IMG/VR virus record: IMGVR_UViG_2713896905_000006
DNA from: a virus
Lineage: Duplodnaviria > Heunggongvirae > Uroviricota > Caudoviricetes
DNA: 4,389 nucleotides
Direction: 5' to 3' (one strand)
Shown here in pieces: positions 308-4,138 of the stretch (position 1 is the first letter of the stretch; every line of letters starts with the position of its first letter). Both the position numbers and the translations under genes were made by a program. The notes under the pieces are model-generated. The model did not search any database, was not told where the DNA came from, and saw only the letters and a program-made list of their open reading frames with translations.

Positions 308-517
<210 letters not shown>

Positions 518-532
518 TTAGTACATACAGTC

Positions 533-602
533 ATTATCACCGCCAGAGGTAAAAGAGTCAACATCCGCGGTGTTAGATATTTATCCCCTGCGGTGATAGA
601 TT
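533..602. promoter_or_regulatory. Right operator region: OR1 (535-551), OR2 (559-575), OR3 (582-598) with divergent promoters pR (toward cro) and pRM (toward cI)
   Basis: Three 17-bp sites: tatcaccgccagaggta, caacatccgcggtgtta, tatcccctgcggtgata. pR on minus strand: -35 TTGACT (complement of 556-561), -10 GATAAT (complement of 533-538), 17-bp spacer. pRM on plus strand: -35 tagata (574-579), -10 tagatt (597-602), 17-bp spacer, with the cI ATG at 609 giving a leaderless-type arrangement. OR1 matches lambda as recalled; OR2 and OR3 differ slightly. Confidence 0.85.
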
Positions 603-605
603 TAA

Positions 606-1322
<717 letters not shown>

Positions 1323-1408
1323 CACGAAATAAACGTCCGACAAGCACAGCAGCCAATACCTAAAAACAATATTTTGCCGAATATTCAGTTCGTTATAAAG
1401 GTTAAGCA

Positions 1409-1987
1409 TTGAGTATACCAACTGTCTCTCTATGGAATGAGATGGGGTTAATCCCCCCAATAGACGAGGCTGATCCTACAAGCCATACTCGTTCCCCATA
1501 CAAAATGGATATAGTACGCTTTGTTAGTACTTTTTCGCTTAGCCCTGCAAGGATTAAAATCCTTAAGGGTTTTCTTAACTTTCGTGTTTCACTCACTCAA
1601 GCAGGGCTAGTTGAAGGTTTTCAGTGGGTAGATGGAAGCTTCACAGAACATATTGAACTTATTGAAAAAAGGCCACCGAATGATGTCGATGTTGTGACCT
1701 TTTTTCAATTCAGTAATGGCGATAATGATGCAATCGTAATCGGTAGAAAGCCAGAGCTATTTGATCATGATTTTGTTAAGAAGGAGTTTTTCGTAGATTC
1801 CTACTTCCAAGAACTTAATCTACCAAGTCATGAGCTTGTTGAAATGACTGTATATTGGTACAGTATGTGGGCACATAGACGCGATCTGTCGTGGAAGGGA
1901 TTTATCCAAATCCCGTTAAACCCACAACTTGATGTTGTGGCAATGACTATACTTAATTCGGCTACTACTGAGGGGGTCAAACAATGA
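1409..1987 (+). CDS. Hypothetical protein, cargo gene 1 of 2 in the rexAB slot; possible nucleotidyltransferase-fold protein
   Basis: 192-codon ORF beginning at TTG 1409 with AAAGG (1397-1401) 7 nt upstream. Alternative in-frame ATG starts at 1442 and 1505. Contains G-S (nt 1634-1639) followed 14 residues later by D-V-D-V-V (nt 1682-1696), the pattern of minimal Pol-beta-type nucleotidyltransferases. Stop TGA overlaps the start of the next gene. No similarity to lambda RexA or RexB that I can recognise. Confidence 0.6.
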   Translation: MSIPTVSLWNEMGLIPPIDEADPTSHTRSPYKMDIVRFVSTFSLSPARIKILKGFLNFRVSLTQAGLVEGFQWVDGSFTEHIELIEKRPPNDVDVVTFFQFSNGDNDAIVIGRKPELFDHDFVKKEFFVDSYFQELNLPSHELVEMTVYWYSMWAHRRDLSWKGFIQIPLNPQLDVVAMTILNSATTEGVKQ

Positions 1988-2913
1988 ATCGTAATGATTA
2001 TGTTTTCGCTCTCAGTGAGCGCGAGCAAATAAGTAATCTATTAAAAAATATGCCAACAAGTCATTCTATTAGCCGAAAAAGCTTAGAAGACCGTCTGGAG
2101 AAAGTTGAGCGATTAATTTCACAAGCTGACGTTCGAGAACATGAACCTACGCATGCTGTGTTAACTTTTAGAGGCCCAACAGTAGTTGGCACGCATGGCA
2201 TTTCAGCAGTATTTGGAACAAAAGCTATATCTTGTTTTAATGATGCAATAGCTTACTTGGCAACCTCTTTCAATGGCCCACTTCCTGCATCAGGCAAGAT
2301 ACCAAACATAGAAAATAATCATCTCATGATTACCGCGTCAGCCCGTGGTTCTTTCGGATTCGTACTTGAAGAGTTTAGACCTGATGCTCCTCTTGAATTC
2401 GATGAAGAAACCCCAGTAGCAAAAGCTATTAATAAGGCCAGAAAAATATTTCAGGCAAGCTTGGATAATGATGATGAAGAATTGTCTGATGCTATAGAAA
2501 ACTTAGACTCTCGGGCCTTAGATAAAATCAGAGCATTCATTCATTATCTGCATGAAAATAAAACAGTTTTTACACTTAAAAGCCAAGGTTTTAGCATCGT
2601 TTTTAGAGAGCCAAAACAGCTTGAAGCTGTATATCAACATCTCAGCAATGATAACATTCAGCAGGAAAAAATTATTGAGAACGTTATATTTTTGGGAACT
2701 CTTCCTAACAAGCGCCAATGTGAATTTATAGTTTTAGGTAACACTGATATCAGAACCGCTAGCATTGACAAAGCTGTAGATGACCCAGATATTATAAACA
2801 AGCACTTAGGAAGCGTTGCAACAGCCACGTTCCTGAAAAAAACTGTTGGTAAGGGCAAGCCCAGATACACTCTGGTTTCTCGACCTCAATGGGATATTAA
2901 ATCAATCGATTAG
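1984..2913 (+). CDS. Hypothetical protein, cargo gene 2 of 2 in the rexAB slot; no recognisable domain
   Basis: 309-aa ORF, ATG at 1984 overlapping the upstream stop (caaacaATGAatcg), implying translational coupling. No transmembrane-length hydrophobic stretch. Acidic segment DNDDEELSDAIENLDSRALD. Followed immediately by an intrinsic terminator. Confidence 0.75.
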   Translation: MNRNDYVFALSEREQISNLLKNMPTSHSISRKSLEDRLEKVERLISQADVREHEPTHAVLTFRGPTVVGTHGISAVFGTKAISCFNDAIAYLATSFNGPLPASGKIPNIENNHLMITASARGSFGFVLEEFRPDAPLEFDEETPVAKAINKARKIFQASLDNDDEELSDAIENLDSRALDKIRAFIHYLHENKTVFTLKSQGFSIVFREPKQLEAVYQHLSNDNIQQEKIIENVIFLGTLPNKRQCEFIVLGNTDIRTASIDKAVDDPDIINKHLGSVATATFLKKTVGKGKPRYTLVSRPQWDIKSID

Positions 2914-2926
2914 AATGAGCCCCTTC

Positions 2927-2955
2927 AGCCCGGCCTCCGCGCCGGGTTTTCTTTT
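2927..2955 (+). terminator. Rho-independent terminator ending the cI / cargo operon
   Basis: GC-rich stem cccggc (2929-2934) / gccggg (2941-2946) with loop ctccgc, followed by ttttctttt (2947-2955). T-run is on the + strand side only. Lies 14 nt after the ORF2 stop. Confidence 0.7.
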
Positions 2956-3105: not shown

Positions 3106-3168
3106 AACCATTTGCGGTAATATTTTATCTCTAGCGGTGTTGACGAAAATACCTCCGGCGGTGATACT
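3106..3168 (+). promoter_or_regulatory. Left operator region OL3 (3106-3122), OL2 (3126-3142), OL1 (3150-3166) with promoter pL
   Basis: Three 17-bp sites aaccatttgcggtaata, tatctctagcggtgttg, tacctccggcggtgata, the same family as the OR sites. pL -35 ttgacg (3140-3145), 17-bp spacer, -10 gatact (3163-3168). Near-identical to lambda oL/pL as recalled. Directs + strand transcription into nutL and N. Confidence 0.85.
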
Positions 3169-3214
3169 AAACACATCAGCAGGACGCTGGAAGCTAAATG
3201 GAACAGACTGGCAG

Positions 3215-3259
3215 GCTCTTTAAACAACGTCGACTCTCGACTACGTGGCTGAAAAGCCA
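3215..3259 (+). promoter_or_regulatory. nutL-like N-utilisation site (boxA, spacer hairpin, boxB)
   Basis: GCTCTTTAA (3215-3223, boxA-like), hairpin gtcga-ctc-tcgac (3229-3241), tacg, then tggct-gaaa-agcca hairpin (3246-3259, boxB-like). Lies in the pL leader upstream of N. Parallel architecture to the nutR copy. Confidence 0.55.
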
Positions 3260-3357
3260 GATCACCCAACCACATAAGCTGTGGGATGCAATGCCGAAGC
3301 AACCGTCTCAGGAGGAGCTTCGAGATTGCATCGCCAAAGTTTATTCGGGAGGAATCT

Positions 3358-3630
3358 ATGTCCAGAAAAACAGAATTTAAAGGCACCGCAGCTTCTCGCC
3401 GTAGAGCTCGTCGCGCAAATCTGCAAAGTCAGGAGGCGATTAGCTCCGACAAGCTACACAGGCCAACCCCTTCACGAGTGGTCTTGCAATGCAAGCGCAA
3501 ACCAGCAATGAGAGCAGAAGTTATAACTCTGACAACGTTGACCAGAAAATATGAAGGTTCAACTTGTCTTCCGAACGTAGCTCTTTACGCGGCAGGCTAC
3601 CGGAAATCAAAACAACTGACAGCGAGGTAA
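3358..3630 (+). CDS. N: N-family transcription antiterminator (arginine-rich motif; phage 21 N / P22 gp24-like)
   Basis: 90-aa product MSRKTEFKGTAASRRRARRANLQ...ALYAAGYRKSKQLTAR. Strong ribosome-binding site gggagga 5-8 nt upstream of ATG 3358. Arginine-rich N-terminus typical of N proteins. The N-terminus resembles phage 21 N and the C-terminus resembles P22 gp24, both from memory. First gene after pL/nutL, as expected. The upstream in-frame ATG at 3286 has no ribosome-binding site and is rejected as the start. Confidence 0.8.
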   Translation: MSRKTEFKGTAASRRRARRANLQSQEAISSDKLHRPTPSRVVLQCKRKPAMRAEVITLTTLTRKYEGSTCLPNVALYAAGYRKSKQLTAR

Positions 3631-3688
3631 CCTGCACTGTTCGCCAGAAAATGAAATTAGGCAGCAAACCACTTATTTGAGGTGATAT

Positions 3689-4138
3689 ATGGAAGAACAG
3701 GCAAATAAGATTCTCATAGAACTATTGCAAAAAGCCAGTAATGGAATAGACGCGGCTGTCTCATTTAGCCAGGCACAGATTCCTGATGTTGTTCATCAGT
3801 TACTGCTATGGAATATGGTTGACAGTCTGATTAAAACATTAATAGCCATTTTAACAATCCCGCTGGTTTTCTGGTTTATGAAGAAACAGTGCCAAAAAGT
3901 TGAAATTGGTAAGTTCGATGATGAAGGATGGTCATGGGATAAGGGGAAGACTAAATACAAACCGACTATGATTTGGGAAAGTAACTGTGAGATTAGTTTT
4001 CTAATCTTACCATTAGCTGCAGTTTTTGTTCTGTGGGTAAGTTTTATTATTGCTGTAGTAACCAATATGACTTGGTTAAAAATTTGGCTGGCCCCAAAGC
4101 TTTACCTTATCGAATATGCAGCATCATTGGTTAAGTAA
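3689..4138 (+). CDS. Hypothetical small membrane protein with two predicted transmembrane helices
   Basis: 149-aa ORF with ribosome-binding site gaggtga (3679-3685) before ATG 3689. Two hydrophobic segments, LIKTLIAILTIPLVFWFM and ISFLILPLAAVFVLWVSFIIAVV. Sits in the early-left operon directly downstream of N, where lambdoid phages carry accessory and exclusion genes. Not recognised by me as a named protein. Confidence 0.65.
   Translation: MEEQANKILIELLQKASNGIDAAVSFSQAQIPDVVHQLLLWNMVDSLIKTLIAILTIPLVFWFMKKQCQKVEIGKFDDEGWSWDKGKTKYKPTMIWESNCEISFLILPLAAVFVLWVSFIIAVVTNMTWLKIWLAPKLYLIEYAASLVK

Follow-up and report, generated by a model that had tools for sequence, protein, structure and literature searches.

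The 4,389-nucleotide (nt) stretch analysed here (IMG/VR virus record IMGVR_UViG_2713896905_000006; henceforth, the window) reads, by its gene content, as a lambdoid prophage immunity region, and it raises the question of what function is served by the two genes that lie, in the orientation of cI, between this gene and oL/pL-N. In lambda, this interval houses rexA and rexB. The upstream gene of the pair (1409..1987, + strand) encodes a 192-residue DUF6932-family protein, ORF192, with a predicted core of the minimal Pol-beta-type nucleotidyltransferase (NTase) class, and the downstream gene (1984..2913, + strand) encodes its 309-residue partner, ORF309, which matches phrog_18731 (E 3.6e-53). The evidence outlined below suggests that ORF192 may be a catalytically intact, highly divergent minimal member of the Pol-beta superfamily of NTases. 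On balance, we lean towards the pair being a lysogen-expressed conflict module with nucleotidyl transfer as its biochemical output.

A conserved NTase-like motif in ORF192

A preliminary description of this DNA had pointed to a glycine-serine turn followed by an acidic pair (G-S ... D-x-D) in the product of the upstream gene. Nucleotides 1634-1690 do encode this motif, as GSFTEHIELIEKRPPNDVD, in the frame of the 192-residue open reading frame (ORF), and the residue numbers assigned to it are exact when translation starts at the TTG at 1409. G76 (nt 1634) and S77 (nt 1637) form the turn after strand beta1 (1634..1639, + strand), and strand beta2 opens with D92 (nt 1682), V93 (nt 1685) and D94 (nt 1688), whose two aspartates are a putative metal-binding pair (1682..1690, + strand). 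The spacer between S77 and D92 spans 14 residues, and the flanks of both elements are hydrophobic (FQWVD before GS, VVTFF after DVD). A Shine-Dalgarno sequence for ORF192, AAAGG (1397..1401, + strand), can be read 7 nt ahead of TTG-1409. RefSeq carries both start forms, of 192 and 181 residues; the long form is favoured because a conserved N-terminal segment (IPxWN..G.xPP) precedes the alternative start codon, ATG-1442.

The motif is counted as real because it is conserved, and not because of the bare pattern: written as G[SG]-x9-16-D-x-[DE], the latter turns up in 5.9% of 20,000 shuffled versions of the ORF192 protein, which is within chance. In an alignment of 37 homologues with 36-85% identity (alignment A1), residues G76, S77, F78, E83, P90, D92, D94 and D130 are invariant. 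A full HMMER scan of 1.84 billion representative sequences yielded 1,965 clusters, defined at 50% identity, that match DUF6932 at E <= 1e-3. Among 150 representatives, the best of these clusters, with 30-55% identity to ORF192, S77 and D92 are present in every sequence and G76 in 147, and position 94 is occupied by Asp in 149 sequences and by Glu in the remaining one. The preliminary description made no mention of D130 (FVDSY; 1796..1798, + strand), which is Asp in 140 representatives, Glu in one and His in nine. Its conservation and its position in the structural model suggest that it could be the third catalytic carboxylate, on strand beta3. Residues R48, R59, H156 and K163 are almost as invariant across the 150 representatives. 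The motif and D130 stay invariant, or almost so, in different phyla.

Conservation extends to both ends of the protein. The N-terminal extension PP...RSPY (P16-Y31; 1454..1501, + strand) is mostly devoid of regular secondary structure in the model, and its residues P16, P17, R28, S29, P30 and Y31 are at least 90% conserved in A1 and largely kept in the 150 representatives. A family-specific C-terminal motif, YWYSMWAHRRDLSWKG (Y149-G164; 1853..1900, + strand), runs from the end of helix 140-154 into the following loop. Y149, W150, H156, W162, K163 and G164 are invariant in A1, with H156 and K163 retained in 146 and 148 of the 150 representatives, respectively, and the motif may take part in the binding of the substrate or of the nucleoside triphosphate (NTP).

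Family assignment and predicted fold

ORF192 is a member of Pfam family DUF6932 (PF22014; 2e-26), scoring 93.6 bits against a cut-off of 27 over positions 3-141 of the 142-position profile. The identical gene is annotated in RefSeq as "DUF6932 family protein", and the corresponding PHROG match is phrog_9194. A literature search found no paper mentioning DUF6932, and searches of the literature on the rexAB hotspot and on toxin-antitoxin (TA) systems combining an NTase with an oligonucleotide/oligosaccharide-binding (OB) fold found nothing describing the ORF192-ORF309 module.

The AF2 model of ORF192 (predicted local distance difference test [pLDDT] 88.8, predicted template modelling score [pTM] 0.86) comprises a helix at residues 46-64, a strand at 70-75 leading into G76-S77, a short helix at 82-85, a strand at 93-99 that issues from D92-V-D94, helices within 107-127, a strand at 129-135 bearing D130, a helix at 140-154 and a strand at 166-169. 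This predicted order is the alpha1-beta1-[GS]-alpha2-beta2[DxD]-alpha3-beta3[D] order of Pol-beta-type NTases. Such an order of elements, together with the positions of the motifs, defines this class of enzymes, as reportedly set out by Aravind and Koonin in 1999 and by Kuchta et al. in 2009. Compared with that definition, the G[GS] turn is found after the first core strand, preceded by D or N and not by the usual hydrophobic residue. The [DE]h[DE]h pattern of the second core strand is present as D92-V-D94-V, with a spacer of 14 residues that is one above the classical 9-13. The third carboxylate (h[DE]h) appears on the adjacent strand as D130, acidic in 141 of the 150 representatives, and the alpha-beta-alpha-beta-alpha-beta core of the predicted model is like that of solved NTases.

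A Foldseek search with the model returned the minimal NTase 2rff as top match (probability 0.97, E 0.015), with the MntA chains 7bxo_A and 7ae9_H ranking next; the best structural matches overall were 2rff, 1ylq, HI0073 and the MNT structures 8xeh and 7bxo. Fold-search scores are weak, and ATP-grasp and ribosomal proteins are interspersed among the matches. A PDB sequence search with ORF192 alone gave no match. Designer pentatricopeptide repeat (PPR) proteins, retrieved from the PDB with the A1 profile, were rejected: their E-values are a sum over nine repeats, each with an i-Evalue of ~1e3. The predicted fold and the Foldseek matches to 2rff and MntA place the motif inside an NTase-like fold, and the NTase interpretation of the preliminary description is hence supported. 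GS, DxD and D130 fall on the expected elements of the predicted structure; a profile link to an NTase family did not emerge.

A co-conserved partner protein

Retrieval with DUF6932 patterns from one-genome-per-species contigs produced 80 loci, in 77 of which a homologue of ORF309 (30-71% identity) lies directly 3' of the DUF6932 gene, with a 4-nt overlap in 43 of the 77. Two of the three exceptions end at contig edges, and pairing is therefore seen in 77 of 78 testable loci. The suggestion that the 309-residue protein is a functional partner of ORF192 is borne out by this co-conservation, mostly with the 4-nt overlap. Approached in reverse, from homologues of ORF309, a DUF6932 gene was found upstream in four of four places. 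In the window, the two genes share an ATGA start/stop overlap at 1984-1987, and a Shine-Dalgarno sequence for ORF309, GAGGGGG (1970..1976, + strand), lies within the 3' end of ORF192 with a 7-nt spacing to ATG-1984.

The sole adequately flanked locus with a solo DUF6932 gene is that of Cupriavidus sp. D384 (L079:5875-6618), where the motifs are intact and tblastn finds no ORF309 homologue. Two metagenomic sequences, P0191 (507 residues) and P0161 (420 residues), appear to be DUF6932-ORF309 fusions and are probably frameshift or assembly read-throughs. They were not counted as Rosetta-stone evidence because the WKGF motif is replaced in them by out-of-frame linker sequence; P0191 nonetheless stands for 11 member sequences. 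Relatives of DUF6932 occur in at least 585 species, which include Proteobacteria, Planctomycetota, Chlorobi, Myxococcota and Methanothrix-type archaea. The module is rare on plasmids, with seven matches.

ORF309 belongs to a family of at least 856 relatives, none of which has a Pfam domain of its own. Scans of ORF309 against Pfam, NCBIfam and PADLOC gave no significant match, with Pfam and NCBIfam scores far below threshold, and its profile retrieved only insignificant BAG and RF2 matches from the PDB. Both ORF309 and ORF192 are soluble by sequence, neither having a hydrophobic window above 1.6. The AF2 model of ORF309 (pLDDT 89.5) begins with an antiparallel helical hairpin of coiled-coil type at residues 3-47 (helices 3-22 and 28-47; 1990..2124, + strand), followed by an alpha/beta domain at residues 57-130 (2152..2373, + strand), for which no structural match was obtained. 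This domain contains the segment GSFGF (residues 122-126, nt 2347-2361), which is invariant in alignments A2 and A3; the other conserved positions of the protein are mostly glycine, aromatic or proline. A helical segment spans residues 144-191, and the C-terminal region (residues ~221-300; 2644..2883, + strand) is modelled as a five-stranded OB-fold barrel. ORF309 combines this OB fold with the lack of a catalytic signature.

Genomic context of the module

Lambda-immunity phages and prophages use the cI-N interval for variable cargo, such as HK97 gp49/gp48, a ParA-family gene, or a hypothetical gene paired with DUF1828. The cI-cro-cII block of the window is ~92% identical at the nucleotide level to the immunity regions of HK97, mEp234 and HK106. 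The 1,505-nt module is found with 100% identity in 8 of 5,426 complete Escherichia coli genomes, which fall into two backbone variants differing 3' of N (ORF149 versus an Nmad5-family gene). The presence of an identical module on two backbones points to recent horizontal spread.

A variant with 68% nucleotide identity over the A gene, encoding a DUF6932 protein of 195 residues and a partner of 305 residues, was detected in 26 further E. coli genomes. It lies directly 3' of the gene for a LexA-family CI, in another type of lambdoid prophage with another repressor protein. Genomes with this variant (e.g. L090:4977-6478, E. coli SUISSEKPC3NDM5) are mostly from human clinical isolates. In a P22-like prophage of Aeromonas salmonicida the module sits right after CI and opposite Cro, with a partner only 35% identical to ORF309, and in Citrobacter it likewise directly follows a CI-type repressor.

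Outside prophages, ~10% of the loci have the pair within a type I restriction-modification (R-M) operon, flanked by HsdS, HsdM or HsdR. HsdS is encoded directly upstream in seven loci and HsdR directly downstream in six, HsdM, HsdS or HsdR are second neighbours in several more, and in one locus (L087) the pair is located between HsdS and HsdM. Elsewhere, the neighbours include Abi_2, Abi_C, AAA_21, PIN, TacA, RhuM and an MNT-HepT pair. Prophage repressor operons and R-M islands are typical habitats of defence and addiction modules.

A bona fide MNT is encoded at L068:3350-3682 (HI0073-type, 6e-17 to 1no5) and an MNT-HepT pair at L089:5744-6401. The occurrence of MNT modules within a few kilobases of DUF6932 indicates that the two kinds of NTase module co-reside rather than replace each other. 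One of the 72 immediate downstream neighbours collected in alignment A4 matches Pfam DUF6933 (PF22016; 1.2e-48), whose accession is close to that of DUF6932; this hints at a common set of neighbourhoods from which both families were defined.

Comparison with known systems

The closest parallels are found in MNT/MntA proteins (Pfam NTP_transf_2) of HepT-MntA type VII TA systems. Common features are a small alpha/beta NTase core, a G-S turn with DxD ~10-15 residues further on and a third Asp on the next strand, the upstream position in an overlapping two-gene operon, and an association with defence islands and type I R-M loci. ORF192 differs from MNT/MntA in having ~45 extra conserved N-terminal residues (PP..RSPY) and ~60 C-terminal residues with the family-specific YWYSxWxHRR..WKG motif, and no sequence-profile similarity between them is detectable. 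The partner of MntA is a HEPN RNase with an Rx4-6H motif, whereas ORF309 shows no HepT, HEPN or other Pfam match.

Among catalogued candidates, the PADLOC model PDC-M63A matches all 37 DUF6932 relatives, with a best value of 1e-16 and 2.2e-10 for ORF192. PDC-M63AB shares the two-gene architecture, and the example of it that was tested likewise comes from an E. coli prophage. ORF309, however, has no PADLOC match at E <= 1 and fails the PDC-M63B model, so that PADLOC does not call the pair as PDC-M63. Of 35 partner homologues, two match PDC-M63B, at 3e-4, and ten match PDC-M32A weakly. Given that the A-subunit scores are moderate, ORF192/ORF309 is best regarded as a sister subfamily and not as the catalogued PDC-M63AB. 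PDC-M63 and PDC-M32 each appear in the published literature, in separate studies.

With lambda RexA-RexB the module has in common the slot between cI and oL/pL-N, the strand of cI and the lambda-like flanking genes. RexB is a polytopic membrane protein, whereas ORF192 and ORF309 are both soluble and one of them is enzyme-like. No Rex family appeared among the Pfam, PHROG and PADLOC matches, leaving genomic position as the one shared property. The NTases of AbiEii/MenT systems (DUF1814; type IV TA, abortive infection), which nucleotidylate tRNA, resemble ORF192 in their Pol-beta fold, in their GS and DxD motifs and in being the catalytic part of a two-gene module. They differ from it in their larger size (~250-300 residues), extra C-terminal motifs and an antitoxin encoded upstream, and ORF192 returned no Pfam or PADLOC match to them. 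The aminoglycoside nucleotidyltransferases (ANT) ANT(3'')(9), ANT(9) and ANT(4') contain a second helical domain and modify small molecules unaided, in contrast to ORF192, with its OB-fold partner and its prophage or R-M context. In architecture, the module resembles MNT-HEPN, AbiE and MenAT, but its different partner and the lack of profile similarity set it outside these groups.

Organisation of the immunity region

The genes around the module follow a lambda-like plan. The 5' part of cII, assigned from a homologous annotated locus, lies on the - strand, as does cro (308..508, - strand; Pfam Cro, E 5.9e-35). A consensus scan identified a pR-like promoter, TTGACT-17-GATAAT, at 533..561 (- strand). 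The cI gene, for a repressor of lambda-like immunity, lies on the opposite strand (609..1322, + strand; Pfam HTH_3, 4e-12, and Peptidase_S24, 6e-27). On the far side of the module, the N antiterminator gene (3358..3630, + strand; Pfam N_peptide, E 3.4e-32) is the downstream boundary of the cargo slot, preceded by a pL-like promoter from the same type of scan, TTGACG-17-GATACT (3140..3168, + strand). This promoter is flanked by operator-like repeats read from the sequence, TATCTCTAGCGGTG / TACCTCCGGCGGTGATA, which we take to be similar to lambda oL. The scan found nine promoter-like sites in the window against 9.8 expected in shuffles, that is, no excess; for this reason, the assignment of 533..561 as pR is based on its position and on what is presumably a likeness to lambda pR, and internal promoter-like sites, such as that at 2765-2793, were left uninterpreted.

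Directly after ORF309 lies a strong intrinsic terminator (2927..2948, + strand) with an 8-bp stem, six GC pairs and a T-run, a positional analogue of lambda tIMM that closes the cI-ORF192-ORF309 unit. No terminator-like site was predicted on the + strand between cI and ORF192 (1322-1409), so that it is simplest to assume that the pair is co-transcribed with cI in the lysogen. The use of the same slot by lambda for rexA-rexB likewise makes co-transcription most likely, and closure of the two-gene unit by a terminator fits expression from the cI promoter in the lysogen, as for the RexAB slot. The cI gene is hence presumed to be the first of a cI-ORF192-ORF309 lysogenic operon. The G+C content of ORF192 (0.404) and ORF309 (0.385), compared with that of cI (0.444) and N (0.487), and a trough of 0.34 at 2401-2700, are consistent with a foreign origin of the pair.

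A small membrane-protein gene, ORF149 (3689..4138, + strand), follows N. Its 149-residue product is strongly hydrophobic over residues ~39-135, with a maximum Kyte-Doolittle 19-residue mean of 2.82, and matches phrog_3054 (1.8e-60), to which no function is assigned, with no Pfam match. CE10-type prophages with the identical DUF6932 module encode a "Nmad5 family putative nucleotide modification protein" in its place, which outlines a second variable cargo slot just 3' of N. The closest full-length E. coli matches to the window (L001) are 228 nt longer and align in two pieces, with a break at ~3630-3690; the extra DNA of such matches includes a 60-nt remnant, between N and ORF149, annotated as "antirestriction Ral family protein". 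Between pL and N, a basic 60-residue ORF (pI 10; 3198-3380, + strand) overlaps the start of N by 23 nt. RefSeq lists a hypothetical protein for this ORF in CE10 and treats the ORF as frameshifted in WP9-S17-ESBL-11. A nutL site would be expected in the region taken up by the ORF, within which lies a short hairpin, GTCGACTCTCGAC, at 3229-3241.

Proposed function and alternative explanations

Located in the rexAB slot, the pair is probably a candidate anti-phage or addiction module. In the mechanism that we propose, the module would be cargo of the cI-to-N interval of a lambda-immunity prophage and would act in superinfection exclusion, abortive infection or addiction. The two genes would form an obligate, translationally coupled unit. 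In ORF192, G76-S77, D92, D94 and D130 would make up the nucleotide and metal site, and ORF309 would be a soluble, non-enzymatic protein composed of a coiled-coil hairpin, an alpha/beta domain and an OB fold. The OB fold may bind nucleic acid or a phage-derived ligand and control or target the NTase, which would move a nucleotide onto an RNA or DNA 3' end or onto a protein, and this transfer would halt the infected cell or the invading phage. Motif invariance, an NTase-like predicted fold, pairing with ORF309 and repeated siting after prophage repressors and in type I R-M operons are the observations from which we infer catalysis, its substrate, the split of roles between ORF192 and ORF309 and an anti-phage phenotype. 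We are tentative about ORF309 as a binding or sensing subunit that, through its OB fold and coiled coil, gates or targets an NTase that, in the course of infection, modifies a protein or the end of an RNA or DNA, and regard this part of the scheme as possible.

Several results weigh against this scheme, in which the three-dimensional grouping of GS, D92, D94 and D130 is predicted from the topology of the model. Similarity to a recognised NTase family was not detected at the sequence-profile level: all 37 DUF6932 members match DUF6932 alone, with no NTase Pfam family even at E <= 10, and hhalign comparisons of DUF6932 gave probabilities of 1.1% with a thin, three-sequence MNT template (a real MNT from L068 together with fragments of HI0073 and 8xeh) and of 0.2% with a KNTase sequence. 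For most of the 80 loci, the neighbouring genes show no obvious link to defence. A tblastn search with ORF192 found no DUF6932 gene in 50,697 deposited phage genomes, and a nucleotide search of the phage genome collection with the cargo returned no match. Finally, the one experimental test of a relative was negative: in E. coli NILS69, deletion of the sister system PDC-M63AB left 10 virulent phages unaffected.

Part of this evidence would also be expected if ORF192 were not an active NTase. It would then be a pseudo-enzyme or have an unrelated alpha/beta fold, would serve lysogeny in a structural or regulatory capacity, and would owe its NTase likeness to convergence or to an artefact of modelling. 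The absent profile link, the weak fold-search scores with ATP-grasp and ribosomal proteins among the matches, and the frequency of the bare motif in shuffles all fit such a protein. Pseudo-enzymes, however, normally lose their catalytic residues, whereas the five residues expected for catalysis are near-absolutely invariant in the 150 representatives, and the motifs sit on canonical secondary-structure elements; we consider this explanation quite improbable. If ORF192 is an NTase, it might instead make a nucleotide second messenger, like the CD-NTases of CBASS, with ORF309 as receptor or effector. This is very improbable, as ORF192, with 192 residues, has no counterpart of the C-terminal helical lobe from which CD-NTases build their acceptor site, minimal NTases and ANT enzymes score higher in the fold search, and ORF309 has neither a known cyclic-nucleotide sensor fold (SAVED, STING, CARF) nor an effector domain.

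Two further explanations keep nucleotidyl transfer and distribute the roles differently. Under the logic of HepT/MntA, in a type VII TA-like system, the NTase would be protective and would nucleotidylate (e.g. AMPylate) ORF309, a growth inhibitor acting through nucleic-acid binding by its OB fold; ORF309 would be released when, in an infected cell, the NTase lost its activity or was no longer supplied. A small NTase gene upstream of, and overlapping, that of a larger partner is the order of the MntA-HepT pair next door in L089, and the Foldseek matches ranking after 2rff are MntA chains of HEPN-MNT complexes. The intact solo DUF6932 gene of Cupriavidus suggests that the NTase alone is not lethal, an argument that comes from one locus, and the invariant or near-invariant hydroxyls T61, T117, S123 and Y295 of ORF309 could accept a nucleotide; yet the invariant residues of ORF309 are mostly Gly, Phe and Pro and look structural. 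ORF309 moreover has no Rx4-6H motif or recognisable toxin domain, and the missing profile similarity between DUF6932 and MNT also speaks against this arrangement, which we judge to be rather unlikely. NTase-fold toxins, such as MenT and AbiEii, are an established TA class, and in a classical TA system of this kind ORF192 would nucleotidylate tRNA acceptor ends, with ORF309 as its protein antitoxin, mainly for addiction or stabilisation of the prophage and of R-M islands. Tight, translationally coupled pairing and the presence of the module on mobile elements and in R-M operons would be expected of such a system. Most TA operons nevertheless encode the antitoxin first, whereas the enzyme comes first here, an intact solo DUF6932 exists without the presumed antitoxin, and ORF309, with 309 residues and three domains including an OB fold, is far larger than typical antitoxins. 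Combined with the lack of PADLOC or Pfam similarity to AbiEii or DUF1814, this makes a toxic ORF192 distinctly unlikely.

The reading of the pair as a lysogen-expressed conflict module can be extended to a more general, speculative hypothesis, about which we remain doubtful. DUF6932 and its OB-fold partner might constitute a widespread, uncharacterised two-component immune system that temperate phages insert into the repressor operon, where it would take over the function of RexAB. On recognising single-stranded phage nucleic acid or an intermediate of replication, the OB-fold subunit would, by a new mechanism, license the minimal NTase to tag a host or phage macromolecule.

Implications for DUF6932 and the cI-N interval

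DUF6932 is already catalogued, as a Pfam domain family and through a sister candidate in PADLOC. If the proposed reading is correct, this family of ~2,000 sequence clusters would gain an NTase assignment, and a new class of partner, made up of a coiled coil, an alpha/beta domain and an OB fold, would join the NTase conflict modules MNT-HEPN, AbiE, MenAT and CBASS. The classic lambda rexAB slot would also have a second occupant, one that works by a different mechanism, and the location of the module there makes it directly testable in the best-understood phage genetic system. Since the module recurs behind unrelated prophage repressors, the position after cI may serve as a practical search key for lysogen-expressed exclusion genes.

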